Below are positions 43,986 through 56,480 of a DNA stretch of 64,000 nucleotides, piece by piece. Numbering within the stretch: position 1 is the stretch's first letter; each line of letters starts with the position of its first letter. The notes beneath the pieces were generated by a model. The model searched no databases and had not been told where the DNA came from. It saw nothing but the letters and a program-made list of their open reading frames with translations. The DNA lies in NCBI GenBank assembly GCA_024672275.1, contig GCA_024672275.1_4536.1. One strand, 5' to 3'. The position numbers and the translations under genes were made by a program. Source of the stretch: a phage.

Positions 43986-43986
43986 G

Positions 43987-44014
43987 AAAAGGAGCCATTC
44001 GGCTCCTTTCTTTT
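43987..44014. terminator. bidirectional terminator between convergent late (+) and replication (-) blocks
   Basis: aaaaggagcc-attc-ggctcctttt hairpin flanked by A-run upstream and T-run downstream. Confidence 0.7.
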
Positions 44015-44041
44015 ATAAAAACTCTTTATAAATCAATAAGA

Positions 44042-44929
44042 TCAGAACGGAATATCATCGTCGAAGTCCATTGGAGGTTCTTCTTGATTACTTGGAGTTG
44101 GTTCTGGTTGTGGTTCAGGCTTCTTAACTTCTTTCTTCTCTTCTTTCTTAGGTTGTTCTGCTGAACCACGAATGGCAGCAGCAACTTTATCAGACAGGGC
44201 CAGAACTTTACGAGCAGAATCAATCAGATCTTCTACAGATACAGTCTTAATGGTATGGTCTTTACAAGCATTGAGGATAGCGTGACCAACAGATGCCCCA
44301 AGATCATAATCATTAATATCAACGCCACGAGATTCAGCAATTTCCGATTTCAGTGTGACAGTTGCAGATTGAACAACCCCAGCGATATCGAAAGCATCGC
44401 CTTTAACACCATTACGAATCAGTTCCAGTGCACCATTTACTGCGTGACCAGTTTCCAGACCTACAGTATCACGTTTTTTATAGGACTGCTTAGGAGCAGC
44501 ATCGTTGGAACCTTTATTGCCAGAAGATTTGTTAGACTTCTGAACACCATCGGTAGACAATACTGTAATACGAGATTTTTTAGTATTGTAGTAAGTTTTA
44601 CCGCCTTTATTATCAACGCGATCAATATCAATACTTACTTCTACACCTTTTTCAATAGTGATCCAATTATCACCTTCTTTGACTTGCAGGTTTTCATAAC
44701 CTTCTTTCAGTTCAATATCACCAAGAGAAATCCAAACACCTTTCTCATCTGGTTTAGCACCTTTCTCTTTCAGAACAAGAGAAGCTCGGTGAGTTGAAAC
44801 AATCGTTTTTCCTTCCCAATGAAAAGTTTTAGGTTCGGCGAATTTATCCAGTTTAACGTAGTCTACGATACCAGTTGCATAAGTTACGGTTTTGCCTTTA
44901 CGATCAGTTTCAGTATTAATTACGGACAT
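44042..44929 (-). CDS. putative single-stranded DNA-binding protein with host-type SSB C-terminal tail
   Basis: 295 aa; last 11 residues PPMDFDDDIPF identical to the E. coli SSB C-terminus; Pro/Glu/Lys-rich linker before the tip. Confidence 0.55.
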   Translation of the reverse strand: MSVINTETDRKGKTVTYATGIVDYVKLDKFAEPKTFHWEGKTIVSTHRASLVLKEKGAKPDEKGVWISLGDIELKEGYENLQVKEGDNWITIEKGVEVSIDIDRVDNKGGKTYYNTKKSRITVLSTDGVQKSNKSSGNKGSNDAAPKQSYKKRDTVGLETGHAVNGALELIRNGVKGDAFDIAGVVQSATVTLKSEIAESRGVDINDYDLGASVGHAILNACKDHTIKTVSVEDLIDSARKVLALSDKVAAAIRGSAEQPKKEEKKEVKKPEPQPEPTPSNQEEPPMDFDDDIPF

Positions 44930-44945
44930 TATTATCTCCTCTACA

Positions 44946-45338
44946 TTACATTAATTTTGCACAGAAAGAGCGGAGTCTTTCCATATCATCTTGCTCTAAC
45001 AGGTATTTACCTTTACCTATTCCAACTCCAATTTCACCATTAGGAAAATGAACTATTTGCACTGGAAAACCTCCGAGTTTAATTGTGGCAGCTTTGCCTT
45101 CTTCGTCTATAACGTTTCGGATTGTATCTTGCAGTGAAATGAATTCTTTGTTTGTAATAGTGGTTTCAATTATTTCAGATGTTTCAACACGAGCAGTTAG
45201 CTTCTTGTTTCCACCTTGAATAACCAAAATTTGAAAATAAAAAGAGTTGTCAAGACCTACAACATTTTTCTCAACTAGTGTCAAACTGGTATAGTTTCCA
45301 TAAACAGTTTCAACAGCTATCTTAGAACGTTCAGTCAT
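44946..45338 (-). CDS. hypothetical protein (130 aa)
   Basis: ORF with RBS in replication block. Confidence 0.45.
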   Translation of the reverse strand: MTERSKIAVETVYGNYTSLTLVEKNVVGLDNSFYFQILVIQGGNKKLTARVETSEIIETTITNKEFISLQDTIRNVIDEEGKAATIKLGGFPVQIVHFPNGEIGVGIGKGKYLLEQDDMERLRSFCAKLM

Positions 45339-45383
45339 TGAATGCTATCCTATCATAAAATGTTTAATATTGTCAAGCTTTAA

Positions 45384-45977
45384 TTACCAAGGAATATCAT
45401 CTTCTTCCAATCTGGTATCTACTTGAGGTGGACGTGGAACCTTAACCTCTTTCACAAAACGAAGATATGGGAAACGTGTAGCAATTTTAATAACATGTTT
45501 GGCATCTTCTCTAACATCTTTGTGCAAGAAGCAGATCCCTGTTTCCAAGGTTGTTTCAAAATCTTTAGAATAATAACAGTCCTTCCCATCAAATGCAGCC
45601 TGGCAGATGGACAGATCGAACTCATTTAGAAAGGTTGTCATTACGCTTGGTTCCATAATCATAAGGTTGCAAAGCTGACCATCACGTTCAAACTCAAAAA
45701 CGTGTTTAAGACCAGTAACACCTTCATAATTGTCAGAAGCCTCTTTGTTTCCTAGTTTACGAATATTGGTTCCCATTAAAGCAGATGCAATTAATCCTTG
45801 TATTTGTTCTTCAGTCCGATGTGCAGGAAGGGATGTATAGAAATCCAGATCACGTCCAGCAATATCAAGAATACGCCAATCACGAACAGCACCGCCAGCC
45901 AAGACAGAATTAGGATCAGCGATCTTTAATACGGTAAGAATTTCTTTGGCAATATTGATTTGTTTTGATTTAGTCAT
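45384..45977 (-). CDS. hypothetical protein ending in SSB-tip-like EEDDIPW
   Basis: 197 aa; C-terminal ...DTRLEEDDIPW resembles the acidic SSB tip. Confidence 0.45.
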   Translation of the reverse strand: MTKSKQINIAKEILTVLKIADPNSVLAGGAVRDWRILDIAGRDLDFYTSLPAHRTEEQIQGLIASALMGTNIRKLGNKEASDNYEGVTGLKHVFEFERDGQLCNLMIMEPSVMTTFLNEFDLSICQAAFDGKDCYYSKDFETTLETGICFLHKDVREDAKHVIKIATRFPYLRFVKEVKVPRPPQVDTRLEEDDIPW

Positions 45978-46606: not shown

Positions 46607-49600
46607 TCAGTGACAACTGGCCCAGGAATTCCCCACGTCATATCCAGCAGTAAGCTGAACATTAAGATTGTAAAATTCTCCAGCCTTAGTAACAGCTAAA
46701 GCAGCAAGTTCACCTGCCCGACTATAAGCTGTAAACCATCCACCTTTGGGAGATTCATGAATGTTAGCCCAAATTTGCCCTGTCTCTTTTTCCTTATTAT
46801 GCTTCCATTCTTCAACTTTAGCAAGGCATTCTTTATCAATTTTCTTTTGTTCTTCAGGATCGTCTACTTTCTTCCAACCTAATGATTCAGGTGAAAACCA
46901 TTTGAATTCTACGAGGTTACGAGAAACTTCAAGCTGGGCTTCATCGTGATATGCAATCATTTGTTGCACGAAGTCTTTATTCTTCCAGTCATCTTTAAAG
47001 AAGTCAACACTTAATCCTTCTTCTTCGATCATATCGTCATAAATAACCATTGCACGTTTAGCACAGATAACCCCACCGCTTTGGAACAGAGAGTTAAGAA
47101 TCGCGTGAGCAGAACGAGTAGGAACCTTACGACCGTCAATACCCAAAACATATTGTTTACCAGTCTTAACCCAGAAATCGTTTAAACGTTCTTTAAGACG
47201 CGCCAATGGGAATGCAGCTTCCCAGAAAGCATCGAACACCAATTGACCTGTAAACTTATCGCTACCAATTGTTTTAGCAACCTTGTCGGCTTGTGCACCA
47301 TAGGTAATACCATACTTAACAGATTTAGCAGGACTACGTTCAAATTTACGTCCAATAGTTTCAGTGATACGTTTTGCCATCATTGTGTGAACATCATTAG
47401 GTTTCTCTAACAACAGAGCGTTACAATATTCGTGTGGCTCCGGCTCGTACCGCCAACAGTTTCCTGTGATGGTAATGCAGTCTTTCTGACGCATGACCCA
47501 CGTACCAAGTTCTGTTTGTGGACACCAAACATCCTCTACACCCCACTCTTCAATAGTCAAACTTTGAACAGGAATGTGAGAGCGGTTAGTCAATGTTGCC
47601 ACTTTTACTTTCTGCTCTTTTGTATTGAAAGCTACAGAGATATTGCCTCCATGCACCAGGTACGAGGCAGTTAAAGCTGCTTCAAAAAGTTCACCTGGGT
47701 TCTGCGCCCAACGCCAAACAGGTTTTTGTTTATGTTCGTGCCAGTAACCATCTGCAATCAAGAAACCTTCCAAGAAAGCTACACGCTCGGCATGAGACAT
47801 ATTAACTACACGTTCTACCCACGGAACATCCCATTTACCTTGTTGAACATAAGTTAAACTATTTACCTGATCTTGTTCCATGTTAAATGGAGCATTACAA
47901 ATAATGTTATCTCCTGTGCAAAGCTCGGCAGTTGTTCTGACTTTAGGCACATAAGTATTCCCTTTACTACGGGTATTAACATACCAACGGTGATCTGCTG
48001 TTGCACGGTAAGTGTGTGATTTCCCTTTAATCTCAAACGTCTTACTATTTTTATAGAAGACCTTACCTTTTACTTTAGTCCATTCTTTCAGACCTGTTTC
48101 AGCATTGTACCCTAAAATCTCATCCCCTTCCTTCAGGTCGTGATATCCTACCCAACCTTTACGAGTCAAAGCTTGAGCATCCATCGGCACACAGTAGTGT
48201 GATTCAATTTTTGCTTCCAAAGAGTCGAAGTCGTAGCCAATCTGGAAGTATTTAGGAACCTCTACACCAAACAAGTTACGCATCTCCCATCCAAACAAAG
48301 ATGTGACACGAGGAATATTAGCTACAGATCTGTGCTTCATACGAGAAGTTGCAGCATCACATGTAGCGGCTGGGGTAGGAATACGACCATCTGCCCTTAC
48401 TGCGGCTAAGAAACCTTTATCGTATTCTTGATCTTCCTCATCTTCTTCCCAATCAGCACCACCACCTAAAATAGAGTTCCTACGATGTTTATACGTTAAG
48501 TATTCTACAATCTGCGTAGCATAAGGGAATTTCTCACCCAAAGCTTGCAGGTTAGGACAAATTTCTTTTTCCTGACCTTTGGTAAAACATGGGTTAGTCA
48601 ATACTTTAAGACCGCGACCTTTACCTTTTGCTATACGCTCTTGAATCTTCCTTTCCAAAGTTTCCGGTGTGCACTCCAGATGATCACAACGATCCTGACA
48701 AAAATTAGAAGATAGAGTTTGCTCAACGTAAGCTCTAATACCTTTCTGAAGTTCTTCCTCGCTCTTTTTAATTTTGGTGCCAGATTTAAGCGTCAAGTCT
48801 TTATCTTTATATTCAGACGGTACCCAACCTAATCCTACAAGCCAGTTTTTAATATGGGTTGTATCGTTCAATGTTGCAGGAATGTTAGGATCACATAGAG
48901 GCTCATCTGCTGCAACTGGCAGTTTCCACTCTTTCCCCAACATAACTAACCACCAATCGCCATCCCTCTCTTCCAAATGACCATCATGTTTCTTAGCAAA
49001 ATTGATCATATGGTTAGTTGGCTCTAAGTTCTTTTTAATTTGCAACTTAGGTGGAATAAAAGCCTTAAGATAACCTTTTGTTGCTGGTTTAGGTGGCAAA
49101 ATAGGCTCAACGAGTAAACGAAGACGCTCCATTTCTGCATCCAAAAAAGCAAGGTTCTCTTCTGCTTGTTTCATGTTAAAAGCAAACCCACGGTGTTCCT
49201 GGCGTGTAATAATGTCTGCTACACGTTGTTCAAGTTCAAATGGACCTTCCCATTTATCATAATCACCCCATTCTTCCATAAGGTAATTATATACGCTCGT
49301 ATTGGCTTTGTTGTCATAGATACAGTAATAAAGCATATCCGCAGCAAAAGTCTTAAATCGATCTTCTTCTGGAATCTCTTTACGGAAATCTATTTTTACA
49401 TCACCACCTGCTTTTCGAGAAAGTGCTGCCAAGCTATGTCCTGATTTGCCCTCAATCTTTCGATCTGGGTTTAACACTTTACTCAAAATCAAGGAGTCAA
49501 TAAGTTTTACCTTATTTTTGCCCCACGTATTATATTTAACACTGTAATCTAATCCATAAAACAGTTTTGTAGCCAACCAGTCGTAGTTGATACCGTTGTG

Positions 49601-49939
49601 AGCCACAGCCATTTCAACTAGATATTCAGGCTTGTCTTTAAAATAACCTTCATGATTAATAAAATCTGGGAAATCTTTTAGTTGAAAATGTGTGTAATCT
49701 TGCGCCACATACTCTTTAAGAACATATGTGTATTTACCATCTGACTCTTCGTAAGGACGCCCATCAAAGATGTATTTAGGGCCATCGTGGAAAGCTACTA
49801 TTTCTCCTGTTTCATGGTTCTCTAAGACAATACAGTGCATTTGAAATGTGTCTTTGAGACGATAAGGACTAGCTAAATAATCAATAGTGTCATTATTCAA
49901 CAATCCGTTTGCTTCAATATCCCATGTAAACTTACTCAC
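46607..49939 (-). CDS. DNA polymerase, family A with N-terminal 3'-5' exonuclease, interrupted by an intein
   Basis: 1110 aa; exo motif DIEANGL; motif A-like DFDSLEAKIESHY split from downstream extein; motif B RSPAKSVKYGITYG (compare Klenow RRSAKAINFGLIYG). Confidence 0.85.
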   Translation of the reverse strand: MSKFTWDIEANGLLNNDTIDYLASPYRLKDTFQMHCIVLENHETGEIVAFHDGPKYIFDGRPYEESDGKYTYVLKEYVAQDYTHFQLKDFPDFINHEGYFKDKPEYLVEMAVAHNGINYDWLATKLFYGLDYSVKYNTWGKNKVKLIDSLILSKVLNPDRKIEGKSGHSLAALSRKAGGDVKIDFRKEIPEEDRFKTFAADMLYYCIYDNKANTSVYNYLMEEWGDYDKWEGPFELEQRVADIITRQEHRGFAFNMKQAEENLAFLDAEMERLRLLVEPILPPKPATKGYLKAFIPPKLQIKKNLEPTNHMINFAKKHDGHLEERDGDWWLVMLGKEWKLPVAADEPLCDPNIPATLNDTTHIKNWLVGLGWVPSEYKDKDLTLKSGTKIKKSEEELQKGIRAYVEQTLSSNFCQDRCDHLECTPETLERKIQERIAKGKGRGLKVLTNPCFTKGQEKEICPNLQALGEKFPYATQIVEYLTYKHRRNSILGGGADWEEDEEDQEYDKGFLAAVRADGRIPTPAATCDAATSRMKHRSVANIPRVTSLFGWEMRNLFGVEVPKYFQIGYDFDSLEAKIESHYCVPMDAQALTRKGWVGYHDLKEGDEILGYNAETGLKEWTKVKGKVFYKNSKTFEIKGKSHTYRATADHRWYVNTRSKGNTYVPKVRTTAELCTGDNIICNAPFNMEQDQVNSLTYVQQGKWDVPWVERVVNMSHAERVAFLEGFLIADGYWHEHKQKPVWRWAQNPGELFEAALTASYLVHGGNISVAFNTKEQKVKVATLTNRSHIPVQSLTIEEWGVEDVWCPQTELGTWVMRQKDCITITGNCWRYEPEPHEYCNALLLEKPNDVHTMMAKRITETIGRKFERSPAKSVKYGITYGAQADKVAKTIGSDKFTGQLVFDAFWEAAFPLARLKERLNDFWVKTGKQYVLGIDGRKVPTRSAHAILNSLFQSGGVICAKRAMVIYDDMIEEEGLSVDFFKDDWKNKDFVQQMIAYHDEAQLEVSRNLVEFKWFSPESLGWKKVDDPEEQKKIDKECLAKVEEWKHNKEKETGQIWANIHESPKGGWFTAYSRAGELAALAVTKAGEFYNLNVQLTAGYDVGNSWASCH
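47459..48193 (-). mobile_element. intein (245 aa) with LAGLIDADG homing-endonuclease motif, inserted just after polymerase motif A
   Basis: starts Cys583 (CVPMDAQALTRKGW), TxxH block (TADH), LEGFLIADGYWHEH, ends ...DCITITGN followed by Cys(+1). Confidence 0.7.
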
Positions 49940-51248: not shown

Positions 51249-51268
51249 ATAAAAGGGCCGAAGCCCTT
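51249..51268 (-). terminator. rho-independent terminator after primase-helicase
   Basis: minus-strand aagggc-ttcg-gccctt hairpin followed by T-rich run; overlaps stop codon. Confidence 0.6.
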
Positions 51269-53045
51269 AATAGTTGCTATCCGTAGGCAAATTAGCAGGA
51301 TTGTTGAAATACTGCTCTTTGTCATGCAGAGTTGCAGTTCTAATATCATAGTAAAACTGCCCTGCTGGACCAGTTTCCGAGAACTCACGGTTTTTTAGGA
51401 TAAAGCAATGAGTCGTATTGCGTTCTACAGGGTCTTCAGCGGCTTTATCTCGTTCCAAAGCCAAGGTAATACCAGCACCTTTAGCCAAGAAACTACTACC
51501 CATTGCATCGTCCTCTGTTAAGTGTTCATTGCCACCATTAGCCGACTTCTTAACGTGTGAGATGACGATAATGGTTATAGCATACTCTTTCATGATGCGC
51601 TTCAACCATGTTGCTAACTCTTCCTGGGCTTGAACATCCATACCAGAAAGCAAATCAGAATAAGGGTCGATAACAAGAATTGTTACTCCAAAATAGATGA
51701 TCATCTCCAAAACTTTTTCTTTGATAGACTCCACATCTGCTCCACGATCATCACACACATAAAAACGTGGTGATCCATCTTCTCTTTCGTAAAAATCTAG
51801 GATTTTTTCTTTATTCTCTTCCAAGATTTGAAATTTCTCTTCCGGTGTTTTCCTGTGTAGAGGAATATGCAGGAACGAGGACAACAGGTTACGAGAATAT
51901 TTCTTATAAGTTGCTTCCAAGGACAGAATGCCTAGGGTATGTTCTGGGTGCGCAACAATAATATGTTTGGTGATCTCGTTCACCATCAAAGTTTTACCGA
52001 TACTGGTCTTTGCCAGGATGACGGTAATCTCTTCCTCTACTAAACCACCACCCAGCATGTTTGCAGCTACACGCATAAAAGGAGGCAAGGTAATCATCTT
52101 GGATTCCAAGCATTCTAATGCAGCTTCATACAAGACATTAGAAGCATAAACACCTGCTGGGGTATATAGACGAGCACTCCAAAAAGCTTTTACGAAATCT
52201 TTTGCACGACCTTCTTCCAGATACTGATTGGCATCCTTAAGATCCATCTGCATACGGTAGACTTTGTTACGAGGCAGCACCTTAACAATATTTTCAAATG
52301 CCTCATTACCTGCTTTGTCATTATCCATGCAAACAATAATCTTCTTAAATTTTTCAAAGAAAGGATATTGTGCCTGAACTTGTTTATACATACTGGTTTC
52401 ACCAGTTGTGCCACTAACTACTGCTGGAAGTTCATATTTGTTGTCCAAGTTTTCAGACAGCATTTGATAAGCTGCCAGAGCATCGTGTTCACCACCTGTA
52501 ATTACCACAGTATGAGAACGGTCTGCAAAACGAATTTGTCCAAAAAGATCTACATCTTTACCTACTTGACCAATAGGTTTACTGAAATCTTTAGGATGGA
52601 TACGACGCTTAAAACCAACCAATTCTTTACCGATGGTAGTTGGATATAAACAACTTTCTACTACCATCTGATCCCCTTCCTGACGGTATTCATAACGAAC
52701 ACCATAGAAAGATGAAACTTTTTCTTTAATGCCTCGATAACCACGTGGGTTGGTTGATGTTTCTTGAACAATTTTACGATGAATCTGTTTATTAAATTCC
52801 GAACCCACAATCTCCTCCTCTTCTTCTAAAACTTCACCATTTTCTCGTAACCATTCTACGCTAGGAATAGTGTATTCACACGCAAAGCACTTAGCACCTT
52901 TATGCTCTCCATTAGAATCTAATCCATAAACCATCAGGTTATTACGAGAGCGATCCTTGCCATTTTTCATGCAGCGCGGACAACCTGTATGCCCTTCCTT
53001 GCTAAGATCAACATCAAATCCATATTTAGTTATAATGTGCGACAC
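51267..53045 (-). CDS. bifunctional DNA primase-helicase (T7 gp4-like)
   Basis: 592 aa; N-terminal zinc-binding CPRC...CFAC, TOPRIM-like VVITGGEHDALAAY, C-terminal helicase Walker A (AKTSIGKT) and Walker B-like motif. Confidence 0.8.
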   Translation of the reverse strand: MSHIITKYGFDVDLSKEGHTGCPRCMKNGKDRSRNNLMVYGLDSNGEHKGAKCFACEYTIPSVEWLRENGEVLEEEEEIVGSEFNKQIHRKIVQETSTNPRGYRGIKEKVSSFYGVRYEYRQEGDQMVVESCLYPTTIGKELVGFKRRIHPKDFSKPIGQVGKDVDLFGQIRFADRSHTVVITGGEHDALAAYQMLSENLDNKYELPAVVSGTTGETSMYKQVQAQYPFFEKFKKIIVCMDNDKAGNEAFENIVKVLPRNKVYRMQMDLKDANQYLEEGRAKDFVKAFWSARLYTPAGVYASNVLYEAALECLESKMITLPPFMRVAANMLGGGLVEEEITVILAKTSIGKTLMVNEITKHIIVAHPEHTLGILSLEATYKKYSRNLLSSFLHIPLHRKTPEEKFQILEENKEKILDFYEREDGSPRFYVCDDRGADVESIKEKVLEMIIYFGVTILVIDPYSDLLSGMDVQAQEELATWLKRIMKEYAITIIVISHVKKSANGGNEHLTEDDAMGSSFLAKGAGITLALERDKAAEDPVERNTTHCFILKNREFSETGPAGQFYYDIRTATLHDKEQYFNNPANLPTDSNY

Positions 53046-53057
53046 TTTGTTCTCCTG

Positions 53058-53336
53058 TTAAAATGGTTCGTTAGTCTCCATCATATATTCTGCTTCTAGT
53101 TCTTCCATATGCTTTCTAAATTGGAAAGCAATTTCTGCTACAGTTACATTTAAATCTTTTTCAAAAACTTCTGTAGAGCCTTCATAAAAACGAATACCGT
53201 CAATTAAAAGCCCTCCGTGGTAATCCCAATCACTTTCACGAGAAAGCGGGTTAGGCTCTTCATAATAGTAATCCACCTCCACAACTAAGGCTTTCCCGTT
53301 ACGAGTGGTGTATTCAAAATCAAAAGTGTTAATCAT
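53058..53336 (-). CDS. hypothetical protein (92 aa)
   Basis: ORF with ATGA-type overlap to upstream gene. Confidence 0.45.
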   Translation of the reverse strand: MINTFDFEYTTRNGKALVVEVDYYYEEPNPLSRESDWDYHGGLLIDGIRFYEGSTEVFEKDLNVTVAEIAFQFRKHMEELEAEYMMETNEPF

Positions 53337-54280
53337 TATAGCTCCTCAAATAAAAGTCTACGACGCTCATTCAACACATCAATGTGATAATGAGTCCTGA
53401 CATACTTAGCTAATGCTAATCCTTTCTCCATGCAAACATCGGGAGCACTTAATAAGTATTCCGTAATATCTTTCCACTCGGAAGGTGTTTCAGCAAAGAA
53501 TAACAAATCTTTAAACTCTTGTGTATGATAATTCTCACGAGGAGAACAGATCAAAGGTAAACCCTTAGCACCTGCCTCAAGAATTTTAAGATTGCTTTTT
53601 GCATTATTAAACACGTTATCAATCAATGGCGCAAGACTGATTTGATGACCATCGTAAGATTCCATGTAGTTGGCATATGGTCTTACACCTTCATAAACAC
53701 AAGTTGGTGCTACATTTTCTCTGATTACAGACCATTCACGACTACTTAAAACTTCAGAATCCCTACGAAAACCACATATTGTAAGGTCTTTACCAAAATC
53801 GGGCAAGATAGCCAAATCTTGTTTATGTGTTTCACTTCCAGCCCAGACTAATGGAGTTTTGGAGTAGCGATCACGGGTCAACACAAATTGACCTTCATCG
53901 TAAGGAAGTCCATTAGGGATTATGTGCACATTATCATTGTATTGTGAAAGTTCAACTTGCAAAGCAGGTGTCGTAGTTGTAACAAGATCGCTGTGCTCTA
54001 AAAACCATTTTAAATGTTCACGAATACCTGATTCAAAAATACCTTCTAACATGTGTCCTTTTGGAATAACTAAAGAGTCATCCAAATCCATAACCATTTT
54101 AAAGCCTAGGTTTTTAAGGGCTAAAAAGCCCTCTTTACCTTTTGTTGGCACTCCGTTAAAAACGAAAACGTTGTATTTAGGTTGTGAAGAGAACTGCCTT
54201 GAGTAAGGCAGCACTACCCTATGGAAATCGCAGACACTATAATTGATTCCGTTACGATTGTCAAGAATTATTTGTCCCAT
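53336..54280 (-). CDS. putative glycosyltransferase, GT-B/GT1-like (paralog 1)
   Basis: 314 aa; C-terminal KILEAGAKGLPLICS resembles GT1 E-x-x-A-x-G-x-P motif; paralogous to 54288..55235. Confidence 0.5.
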   Translation of the reverse strand: MGQIILDNRNGINYSVCDFHRVVLPYSRQFSSQPKYNVFVFNGVPTKGKEGFLALKNLGFKMVMDLDDSLVIPKGHMLEGIFESGIREHLKWFLEHSDLVTTTTPALQVELSQYNDNVHIIPNGLPYDEGQFVLTRDRYSKTPLVWAGSETHKQDLAILPDFGKDLTICGFRRDSEVLSSREWSVIRENVAPTCVYEGVRPYANYMESYDGHQISLAPLIDNVFNNAKSNLKILEAGAKGLPLICSPRENYHTQEFKDLLFFAETPSEWKDITEYLLSAPDVCMEKGLALAKYVRTHYHIDVLNERRRLLFEEL

Positions 54281-54287
54281 ACTTCAC

Positions 54288-55235
54288 CTACAAACTTTCA
54301 ATAACCTGGCGTCGCAACTCATTTGCATCTGCCAGATTATAATGTGTTCGAACATGTTCAGCCAAGAACAAGCCACGATCTTCCCGATAGTTTGGATTGC
54401 GAAGAAGCTTAACAATTTCGTAATGCCATTCTGCTTTGTTCTCTGCGTAAGCAACAGCACGAGCATCTACAGGGTTAAAATAAGGTAATACCTTAGAACA
54501 AACAATCGGAATACCCTTTGCTCCAGCTTCTAGGATTTTGAGATTACTTTTACAATTATTAAAATCATTATCTACCAAAGGAGCTATAGCAATAGCATGA
54601 CTTTCGTAAACACTCATGTAATTATCTAAATCTTTTACAGCAGCTTTATATTTAGCATTTGGTAAATTTCTGCGAATCTTAATCCACTCTTGTCCCGTGA
54701 TGCTCTGCGATGCTTCATATCCCGCAATAGTAAGAAGTTCATCATCGAAAGTATTAGAGACTAGTCGTAAATCGGGTTCGTGACTAGCACCGCCAGCCCA
54801 TACAACAGGGGTACCGGATGAACGATCATTTGACAAAGTGAATTGTCCACTATCAAAAGGAAGTGCATTTCGGATCACAACAACATTCCTATTTAAGTGA
54901 CGGATCTTATATGCCAAATATTCTGTAGTCACAATAACCACATCAGCAAGCTTAACCATAGCTACAATAGCATGAGTGTTTGACTCGTATAGACTTGCTA
55001 AATAATGTTCTGGATTAAGTTGGTAGAAATCATCTAAATCTACAACAATCTTAACACCTTGACGTTTCAAAGATAAAACGTATTCTGCACCTTTAGAGTG
55101 GATACGGTTAAACACAACAACATCTTTCTTAGGTTGAAGATTATGGTTGTTAAATGGCATAACAATACGATGATAGTCACAACCGCTGTGAGGTTTTGCA
55201 TCAATTTTTAGTTTAGACCATTTTTTATTTGACAT
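54288..55235 (-). CDS. putative glycosyltransferase, GT-B/GT1-like (paralog 2)
   Basis: 315 aa; shares CDYHR, VVDLDD, PVVWAGG, SNLKILEAGAKGIPIVCS, VRTHY blocks with the adjacent paralog. Confidence 0.5.
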   Translation of the reverse strand: MSNKKWSKLKIDAKPHSGCDYHRIVMPFNNHNLQPKKDVVVFNRIHSKGAEYVLSLKRQGVKIVVDLDDFYQLNPEHYLASLYESNTHAIVAMVKLADVVIVTTEYLAYKIRHLNRNVVVIRNALPFDSGQFTLSNDRSSGTPVVWAGGASHEPDLRLVSNTFDDELLTIAGYEASQSITGQEWIKIRRNLPNAKYKAAVKDLDNYMSVYESHAIAIAPLVDNDFNNCKSNLKILEAGAKGIPIVCSKVLPYFNPVDARAVAYAENKAEWHYEIVKLLRNPNYREDRGLFLAEHVRTHYNLADANELRRQVIESL

Positions 55236-55908
55236 GTGCTAGTGCCTCCTCATAGGAAATTCGGATTTTCCCATTTTTAATATCCTCTAAAGATGCTTTA
55301 TATTCTTCCCAGTTAATCCCGATAGCAGCTTCTTTCTCTTCTTTTGTCAGATTAGCAAAAGGCATAGGATTGTTTCCAAAAACATCGTCTGGGTGGATAT
55401 AAGCCATGATACGAAGTGGACAAGGTGTTGCCTGAATACCATGATTCAAACCAGCAGCTTTCAAACGGTGTCCCCATTCGGCATCTTCAAAACCATAACC
55501 GTGAGTGTAAGGGCGGAAATAACCCATCTTCTCAACAACGGCACGAGAATACATTGCAAATTGACACATTGCAAGTTCCCAGAGAATAACTTCTCCTTTG
55601 CTTCCAACAACTTTATCTTTGAAGTACTCCGGCATACCAAAGAAATCCCATCCTCCAGAAACAGCTTGATCTACAAAGTATGTTTCCCATCCTTCCATGA
55701 CTGGGTAGCAATCGTCGTCAAAAATAAACCAATAATCATAACCTTCTTCATAAAACTGGTGTATAAGTTCATTCCTGGCATAAGCTACACCTTTACGGTC
55801 TGGATCGTTGAATACTCGAAAATCTGCACGTGGATCTGTTACAAGGTAGTCTTTAAGTGGGCGGACACCTACAGTGATAACACCCACTCCGATTTTAATA
55901 TTTTCCAT
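55225..55908 (-). CDS. putative glycosyltransferase, GT-A-like (DxD)
   Basis: 227 aa; GVAYARNELI ... DYWFIFDDDCYP pattern typical of nucleotide-sugar GT-A enzymes. Confidence 0.45.
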   Translation of the reverse strand: MENIKIGVGVITVGVRPLKDYLVTDPRADFRVFNDPDRKGVAYARNELIHQFYEEGYDYWFIFDDDCYPVMEGWETYFVDQAVSGGWDFFGMPEYFKDKVVGSKGEVILWELAMCQFAMYSRAVVEKMGYFRPYTHGYGFEDAEWGHRLKAAGLNHGIQATPCPLRIMAYIHPDDVFGNNPMPFANLTKEEKEAAIGINWEEYKASLEDIKNGKIRISYEEALAHVK

Positions 55909-55916
55909 TTTCTCTC

Positions 55917-56480
55917 CTAAATAGTTTTACTGTGATCGTGACAGTGTAATAAATGATGTATAGACCGTTGAGGATTTGTTTGACCTAATCTGTAAATGTG
56001 AAACAGATACATTCCCCGCATCAATCCTAACCTCTTTCCTTTTTCATGTAAAGTGCGAGAGAAAATTAAGTCGAATTGGATAGATTTTTCTTCAAAAGGA
56101 ATTTCATTCCACAATGATTTTCTAAAAAGCAAAAAGAAACCTGCCAAAGGTGTTCCGAAAGGAACTTCTTCAACACTCACTTTATGATATTCTCTTGCAA
56201 TCTTAGCATATTCTATATGGTTTAGAATATCTGGATCATCGTTAATTTGGTTAGAGAAAAGCTGATAACCACTGCCTAACCTGTTACAAGTTGCACCTAT
56301 TACATCAAAAGGCGGGTTTGACATAACAAGCTCTTCAAGCATAGATGGTTGATCAGGTAGGAGGAACATTGTATCGGTATCTCTTAAACACACCCAACTA
56401 TCATCTGGAAGAACGGCAATGGCTTCATTGATAGCCTTGCCGATATTTCCTGTCAGATAGGGAGTAATATAATAAATCAT
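55917..56480 (-). CDS. putative glycosyltransferase-like protein (second DxD protein)
   Basis: 187 aa; LRDTDTMF DxD-like motif after N-terminal beta-alpha start. Confidence 0.35.
   Translation of the reverse strand: MIYYITPYLTGNIGKAINEAIAVLPDDSWVCLRDTDTMFLLPDQPSMLEELVMSNPPFDVIGATCNRLGSGYQLFSNQINDDPDILNHIEYAKIAREYHKVSVEEVPFGTPLAGFFLLFRKSLWNEIPFEEKSIQFDLIFSRTLHEKGKRLGLMRGMYLFHIYRLGQTNPQRSIHHLLHCHDHSKTI

Follow-up and report, generated by a model that had tools for sequence, protein, structure and literature searches.

The stretch of phage DNA analysed here, 64,000 nucleotides of contig GCA_024672275.1_4536.1 (NCBI GenBank assembly GCA_024672275.1) and hereafter called the window, carries two genes whose products end like the C-terminal tip of SSB, the bacterial single-stranded DNA-binding protein. 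One encodes a 295-residue protein that is a candidate SSB of the phage and is referred to as the SSB-like protein; the other encodes a 197-residue protein with the appearance of a minimal nucleotidyltransferase (NTase). Both genes are on the minus strand and close a replication module in which the gene order is primase-helicase, a 143-residue protein, a methyltransferase-like protein, a family A DNA polymerase (Pol A), three small open reading frames (ORFs), the NTase, a 130-residue protein and the SSB-like protein; beyond the latter come a bidirectional terminator hairpin and then a convergent tail-protein gene. The region is matched by 71 records and is ~98% identical to Phapecoctavirus genomes (Stephanstirmvirinae; anhysbys, Mt1B1_P17 and phAPEC8-like Escherichia coli myoviruses), and the phage of the window is itself a member of this genus. 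As an earlier, sequence-only reading of this DNA had stated, the NTase gene is two genes upstream of the SSB-like gene, with a single gene between them, the 130-residue product of which has no match in Pfam, NCBIfam or the PDB. This NTase-130-SSB order is common to divergent phages (phi92, Tr1 and those represented by loci L005, L008 and L014). In a scan of the region, promoter-like sites did not rise above shuffled expectation, and the terminator hairpin 3' of the SSB-like gene is the sole notable element.

The last 12 residues of the SSB-like protein (EPPMDFDDDIPF, in an ORF that ends in ...QEEPPMDFDDDIPF) are identical to those of E. coli SSB, i.e. one residue more than the 11 claimed in the sequence-only reading, and the EEDDIPW end that it had reported for the 197-residue protein is borne out by the ORF at 45384..45977, which closes with ...RLEEDDIPW, the DDIPW directly preceding the stop codon. 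It was equally right to call the two proteins unrelated, and the tip-like tail of the NTase is real, conserved and, in the model discussed below, disordered. Ends of this kind are rare. A regular-expression scan for the C-terminus [DE][DE]x0-1[ILVM]P[FWY] among window ORFs of at least 40 residues returned two of 351, the SSB-like protein and the NTase, and the same acidic-[ILVM]-P-aromatic end was found in two of 915 ORFs in 148 kb of the anhysbys genome, which are the same two genes. This rarity in both scans, together with the conservation of the tails while the linkers that precede them diverge, places the pattern beyond chance. The terminal residue is Trp in every NTase tail seen, and the tips of the SSB-like proteins all have Phe there. 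A tail code shared across the whole phage replisome was considered and rejected, since Pol A, the primase-helicase, their neighbours and the rest of the related genome are without such ends. The primase-helicase itself ends in ...NLPTDSNY, a polar-acidic stretch with a terminal aromatic residue that is faintly like the DTDF tail of T7 gp4 and is not SSB-like. The only other x-P-aromatic C-terminus in the anhysbys genome belongs to a 74-residue ORF next to anaerobic ribonucleotide reductase genes (L009:25461-25685, minus strand), which ends in ...GGDELQRLPF; the residues directly before this end are not acidic, and its P-F may be due to chance.

The AlphaFold2 model of the SSB-like protein (mean predicted local distance difference test (pLDDT) score 79.4, with 51 homologues) is composed of an all-beta part (residues 1-125), a disordered stretch (132-149), a confident four-helix part (156-253) and a low-confidence tail, in which pLDDT is low from residue ~254. 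Two features of SSBs are therein seen, an OB-fold domain and a disordered linker with an acidic ...DDDIPF free C-terminus, both of which, along with the last 12 residues (...MDFDDDIPF), are shared with E. coli SSB. The protein differs from the latter in its extra four-helix domain and in a body that falls outside the bacterial SSB sequence family. Pfam SSB does not match it, NCBIfam PRK09010 reaches 22.8 bits against a cut-off of 260 and this over residues 254-295 only, the SSB families of PHROGs match residues 247-295 only, and SSB chains in the PDB match over the last ~25 residues only. Likewise, no similarity was found between the body of the family and E. coli SSB, hhalign aligning the last 15 columns only. 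The family to which the protein belongs is phrog_4477, listed as function unknown. Foldseek comparison of the model with BFVD was uninformative, returning uncharacterized phage proteins and weak SSB matches (E ~0.05). The PDB search also returned Dictyostelium myosin-2 crystallization constructs that end in ...EPPMDFDDDIPF as well, which accounts for the non-SSB matches and has no bearing on the phage. Some public records name the 295-residue protein SSB, and no second annotated SSB was found in the related genome, which makes it the only SSB candidate of the phage. Its assignment as the probable phage SSB thus draws on how it is predicted to fold, on a layout of linker plus tip, on where its gene lies within the replication module and on the lack of another annotated SSB in the related genome. 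The single-stranded DNA-binding candidate of the sequence-only reading has thus become, with a modelled OB-fold and disordered linker, a host-identical tip and a place in the replication module, a credible phage SSB, which presumably binds single-stranded DNA.

Bacterial genome maintenance has the SSB tip as its central docking peptide. Copies of this tip occur in known SSBs of phages and plasmids, a class to which the SSB-like protein adds a further member. Six of its 12 tip codons differ synonymously from those of K-12 ssb (30 of 36 nucleotides are identical), which rules out that the tail was recently acquired from the ssb DNA of the host and indicates that the peptide is held by selection. 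Consistently, most of the 120 homologues listed have kept the tip: 61 of them end in DDDIPF, other lineages have DSDLPF, DDSIPF, DLDVPF or DDDCPF, and ends of the DDDIPF type persist down to ~30% identity. At the level of sequence, identity with the host over 12 residues argues that the clients of the SSB-like protein are likely to be host proteins.

The model of the NTase (pLDDT 87.9, predicted template modelling score 0.81, 42 homologues) shows a folded core up to about residue 176, followed by a tail whose two final 10-residue blocks (residues 181-197) have a pLDDT of 59 and 50. Foldseek placed class II CCA-adding enzymes, together with A-adding enzymes and poly(A) polymerases, at the top of its matches, the best E being 3.6e-5, with a TM-score of 0.50-0.56 on the query and of 0.25-0.30 on the target and with 25-30% of the targets covered, and comparison of the folds indicates a resemblance to the head and neck alone of class II CCA-adding enzymes. 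Motif A of these enzymes, GGxVRD...DxD, is present as GGAVRDW...RDLDF and aligns to the CCA-adding enzyme 6ibp. A27, G28, G29, R32, W34, D43 and D45 are invariant in 42 members of the family, and the catalytic motif is also intact in all tail-bearing NTases. On the strength of the invariant GG...DxD in 42 relatives and of the predicted class II NTase fold, the protein looks like an active enzyme.

The label that public records attach to this protein, 'tRNA nucleotidyltransferase / poly(A) polymerase', was examined and rejected, since the scores are below the family cut-offs (13.9 bits against 23 for PF01743 (PolyA_pol) and 12.6 bits against 438.8 for TIGR02692), motifs B and D are not kept and whole domains are absent. 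Head-and-neck fold and motif A are indeed shared with the PF01743 enzymes, but the NTase has half their length, and the tRNA-holding body and tail domains of a whole CCA enzyme (~400 residues) are not found in its 197 residues. Motif B (RRD) and motif D (EDxxR) are what we take to be the nucleotide-selecting motifs of class II CCA-adding and poly(A) polymerase enzymes. By inspection of the alignment, which is not structure-based, the motif B position reads E-F-D-L-S-I-C-Q, with EFD replacing RRD and with F120 and C125 conserved; residues 157-161 read E-D-A-K-H, of which only H161 is conserved in the family, so that EDxxR is not kept. The public label is thus a description at the level of the fold and not one of family membership.

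Profile comparisons identify the 197-residue protein as a short, distant relative of the NTase domain of Gad2, an experimentally shown anti-Gabija protein of ~400 residues with a predicted nucleotidyltransferase domain, the mechanism of which was still listed as not elucidated in a 2026 review. When the family profile was compared by hhalign with a Gad2 profile, built from seven of the eight homologues that were taken from the supplement of the Gad2 paper, the match had a probability of 95.8% and an E of 6.9e-9 over 120 columns; with a single Gad2 sequence the values were 74.9% and 2.6e-5. Plain BLASTP of the NTase against Brevibacillus Gad2 was not significant, i.e. profiles are needed. Precomputed Pfam matches to PF26128 (Gad2) are graded faint for P0009 and P0182, which are close relatives, and weak in the case of P0282; a separate Pfam scan gave no PF26128 match, apparently for want of the model in the copy used or through filtering of its hits. 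The aligned region covers AGG...DxD-YF and an FDx[ST][IV]C motif, the latter setting both proteins apart from CCA enzymes. The two thus have in common a homologous NTase domain, the AGG...DxD[IV]YF and FDx[ST][IV]C motifs and a phage origin. They differ in size (~400 residues for the characterized Gad2), its large C-terminal domain being absent from the NTase, although the homologues in the supplement range from 214 to 485 residues, with shorter ones of 214-278. They also differ in the tail, no DIPW end being present in the complete homologue sequences examined from that supplement.

Among the relatives of the NTase, the ten homologues at 59-98% identity all close with ...PW (DDIPW in nine cases and DSFPW in the tenth), and the 10-15 residues before this end vary in both sequence and length. 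At 36% identity, the NTase of Citrobacter phage Tr1 ends in KPKDIPW, and phi92 gp158, which ends in NNEEFKI, is an NTase without a tail. The family comprises 1053 representatives at E <= 0.001 in a 50%-identity library, and the tail carriers among the best 150 of the 1053 are P0007 (the cluster nearest to the window protein), P0182 (PDDIPW) and P0282 (NDIPW, 305 residues); a word-indexed search yielded P0138, which ends in NDFPW. Gene order around P0182 is that of the window, while P0138 and P0282 are in unrelated contexts. In a rough neighbour-joining tree built from core residues only, the Phapecoctavirus NTases cluster together, and Tr1, P0182, P0138 and especially P0282 adjoin tail-less relatives. 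This scatter of tail carriers points to repeated loss of the tail, repeated gain or both. On the P0282 contig, a 357-residue protein (L016:413-1486) ends in ...DDSDALDDFDDF, an acidic tail in the style of T7 with Phe as its last residue.

When the NTase tail is set against the C-terminal motif of SSB, E-E-D-D-I-P is present, at the extreme C-terminus and in a disordered segment, and the last residue is Trp in place of Phe. The NTase thus shares with E. coli SSB the D-D-I-P-aromatic end and its C-terminal position, and it differs in not being an SSB and in its terminal Trp. A disordered, position-specific and conserved C-terminal peptide on an enzyme that appears catalytically intact is what a docking motif looks like, and, given its resemblance to the tip, its neighbourhood and the order in which the genes are kept, SSB-tip pockets are the candidate receptors that suggest themselves. 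The constancy of the Trp argues for a tail that is tuned to one particular receptor. The reading that we favour, with a probability of roughly 0.45, is that the NTase is targeted to host SSB-tip clients by a look-alike of the tip, although its partner may come from the host or from the phage. According to this model, single-stranded DNA coated by the SSB-like protein would recruit the host enzymes that dock on SSB tips, as well as any phage protein reading the same peptide. The DDIPW tail would act as a short linear targeting motif, seating the NTase in the pocket with which one protein, or a small number of them, would recognize the SSB-tip peptide, and the docked enzyme would then deliver nucleotidyl transfer to its partner, or to the nucleic acid of its partner, at sites of replication or repair.

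The sequence-only reading had seen in the NTase a tip mimic that recruits or sequesters SSB-binding enzymes. The tip-like tail has stood up to analysis but inert sequestering has fared less well, because the invariant catalytic motif and the kinship with Gad2 fit the targeting of an enzyme better. As a mere decoy, the tail would compete with host SSB for its clients and thereby sequester or block host repair or nuclease enzymes, catalysis being irrelevant. Such a role would suit a tail that is SSB-tip-like, disordered and conserved, and peptides with the SSB tip are able to compete in vitro for the pockets of its clients. However, a monomeric peptide of micromolar affinity would need to outcompete SSB, which is tetrameric and abundant, the phage already has many authentic tips of its own in the SSB-like protein, and a pure decoy has no need for a catalytic motif that is invariant throughout the family, all tail-bearing members included. 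A decoy is therefore very improbable, and the NTase is most likely an enzyme targeted by an SSB-tip mimic rather than a passive competitor.

The tail could also act in cis, or its likeness to SSB could be a coincidence. Acidic tails that are autoinhibitory are known in T7 gp2.5, T4 gp32 and Hfq, and competition between nucleic acid and such C-terminal tails is well known, with published work on T7 gp2.5 and Hfq. By analogy, the NTase tail might fold onto a basic nucleic-acid groove of the enzyme as an autoinhibitory mimic, or the IPW might serve some other end. The terminal Trp instead of Phe would be in accord with this scenario, as would the acidic-aromatic ends of several tail-less relatives (EEFEF, EEIEF and WDEEF). 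What is conserved, however, is the D-[IF]-P-W end and not net charge (Tr1 has KPKDIPW), the Pro-aromatic C-terminus recurs in distant lineages, and the gene lies two genes away from that of an SSB with an authentic tip, in a conserved order, all of which render this explanation improbable.

Several observations nevertheless weigh against the targeting of the NTase to SSB-tip clients. The OB-fold scores of the SSB-like protein are modest and beyond its tail it matches no SSB sequence family, and the case for mimicry by the NTase is itself one of resemblance between sequences. In Tr1 and P0282, a single acidic residue precedes IPW, which in conjunction with the constant Trp means that the tail may fit a non-classical receptor. 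The Trp-ended and Phe-ended tails do not appear to be interchangeable copies and may have different receptors. Moreover, phi92 and many other members of the NTase family have no tail, which is therefore not essential to the enzyme. Lastly, 17 of the 120 SSB-like homologues listed extend ~15 residues past ...IPF ([AS]P[ILV]GLQY...), which makes their tip internal. SSB-tip recognition uses the terminal carboxylate, so that the 15-residue extension should block docking; the phages that carry it appear to tolerate a masked tip, and a free tip appears to be dispensable in many related phages.

An extended SSB-like protein that is 99% identical to the window protein (P0013) stands for 110 member sequences, and APIGLQYGRNFLHCF is identical in phi92 gp156, Tr1 and Mt1B1_P17, the bodies of which are only ~60% identical to the window protein. 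The window copy is without the extension; a 1-nucleotide indel is found right after its Phe codon, and there is a weak likeness between its 3' flank and the first part of the extension. A gene for an HNH endonuclease directly follows the extended gene on its 3' side in four of six carriers examined and is absent in phi92 and L013, and none was found in window 43986-44041. The Mt1B1_P17 cassette matches 14 phage records, and in six of these the match spans at least 80% of the cassette. Extension and HNH gene together look, from their sequences, like a homing cassette that inserts at conserved tip-coding DNA (...GATATTCCGTTCTGA junction).

The masked tips also bear on a different wiring, of the type known from T7, in which gp4 and gp2.5 have acidic tails with a terminal Phe that are taken to share one site on the gp5 polymerase; in PDB 6P7E, a DTDF peptide mimics the gp4 tail and served to place that of gp2.5. 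Transposed to the window, the receptor of both tails would be encoded by the phage, with Pol A and the primase-helicase as the most plausible choices, and the NTase would be a replisome accessory that shares a docking site, or alternates on it, with the phage SSB, the host interactome not being the target. The likeness lies in that two proteins of a replication module have similar acidic, aromatic-ended tails and that the replisome is of one type, in which primase and helicase are fused and the polymerase is a Pol A; a family A polymerase and a gp4-like primase-helicase are both encoded near the two genes, and the strict W-versus-F difference suits a dedicated phage receptor. The second tailed protein here is, however, a nucleotidyltransferase and not a helicase (the helicase ends in ...PTDSNY), and the tails copy the host SSB tip and not a phage-specific DxDF motif. 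A phage receptor does not require that identity with host SSB be kept over 12 residues despite synonymous divergence, and the remote NTase P0282 has NDIPW in an unrelated context, no such SSB having been found in the 15.6 kb of its contig that were covered. Furthermore, Mt1B1_P17 and Tr1 keep an intact NTase tail despite their masked SSB-like tips, which indicates that the two tails are not a coupled pair. Such a wiring is hence unlikely, although it deserves to be taken seriously.

If the NTase is directed to SSB-tip clients, as we favour, its tail is a new variant of a known principle, that of docking tails shared between replication proteins and of hub-peptide mimicry. A DDIPW tail or SSB-tip mimicry on a phage enzyme other than an SSB was not found in a full-text search of the literature outside subscription journals. 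Should the tail indeed address SSB-tip pockets, phages would be using hub-peptide mimicry for the delivery of enzymes, beyond the recruitment of host factors, and there would be an experimental entry to the Gad2 family. A more daring version, which we regard as a long shot, is that the tip look-alike is a bait, with which a Gad2-family NTase docks on a host reader of SSB tips (either an enzyme that acts in repair or as a nuclease, or a protein of a defence system that surveys SSB-coated phage DNA) and disarms it by nucleotidylylation or by capping DNA or RNA ends. If true, the mechanism of Gad2 proteins would for the first time become approachable, and a new class of anti-defence enzyme targeted by hub-peptide mimicry would emerge. 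Ready-made natural controls exist for such work, i.e. Trp versus Phe ends, tail-less NTases as in phi92 and SSB-like proteins in which the tip is buried by the 15-residue extension. The coordinates of the features discussed are collected in Table 1.

Table 1. Features of the two tail-bearing genes and their surroundings; positions are those of the window unless another locus is named.
Feature	Position	Strand	Remark
SSB-like protein gene, 295 residues	44042..44929	-	OB-fold, helical domain, disordered linker and SSB tip (as modelled)
N-terminal all-beta (OB-fold) domain of SSB-like protein, residues 1-125	44555..44929	-	
Four-helix domain of SSB-like protein, residues 156-253	44171..44464	-	Without counterpart in bacterial SSB
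SSB tip EPPMDFDDDIPF, residues 284-295	44045..44080	-	Same as last 12 residues of E. coli SSB
Bidirectional terminator-like hairpin	43987..44010	.	Between SSB-like gene and convergent tail-protein gene
130-residue gene, conserved	44946..45338	-	Between the two tail-bearing genes; phrog_16560, function unknown
Gad2-related minimal nucleotidyltransferase gene, 197 residues	45384..45977	-	SSB-tip-like tail; phrog_10174 and phrog_1614, both 'nucleotidyltransferase'
Catalytic motif A of NTase, residues 27-47, AGGAVRDW...RDLDFY	45837..45899	-	Aligns to CCA-adding enzyme motif A
Disordered C-terminal tail of NTase, residues 177-197	45387..45449	-	Tip DDIPW at 45387..45401
Family A DNA polymerase (Pol A)	46607..49939	-	
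gp4-like primase-helicase	51267..53045	-	
Tip/extension sites	window 44020-44045; L001:6521-6625; L006:5990-6035; L007:5925-5973; L013:4230-4278; L014:3930-3975; L015:4115-4161		
HNH endonuclease genes	L001:6114-6521 (Mt1B1_P17); L006:6007-6501 (Tr1); L014:3968-4396; L015:4171-4713		

Two further observations concern genes farther upstream. Pol A, which is labelled similar to T7-like phage polymerases in the phi92 record, contains a 245-residue insertion (window 47459-48193, minus strand; residues 583-827) that is absent from the Mt1B1_P17 polymerase, the latter being otherwise identical to it at 865 of 865 residues. The insert begins with Cys (CVPMD...) and ends in ...ITGN followed by Cys, i.e. 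it is intein-like, and no Pfam intein match was found in it at E <= 0.001. Adjoining the primase-helicase gene are four consecutive glycosyltransferase genes (window 53336-56480, minus strand), which may be linked to the modification of DNA or of surface sugars; one of the four has a weak match to the beta-glucosyl-hydroxymethylcytosine (HMC) alpha-glucosyltransferase family.

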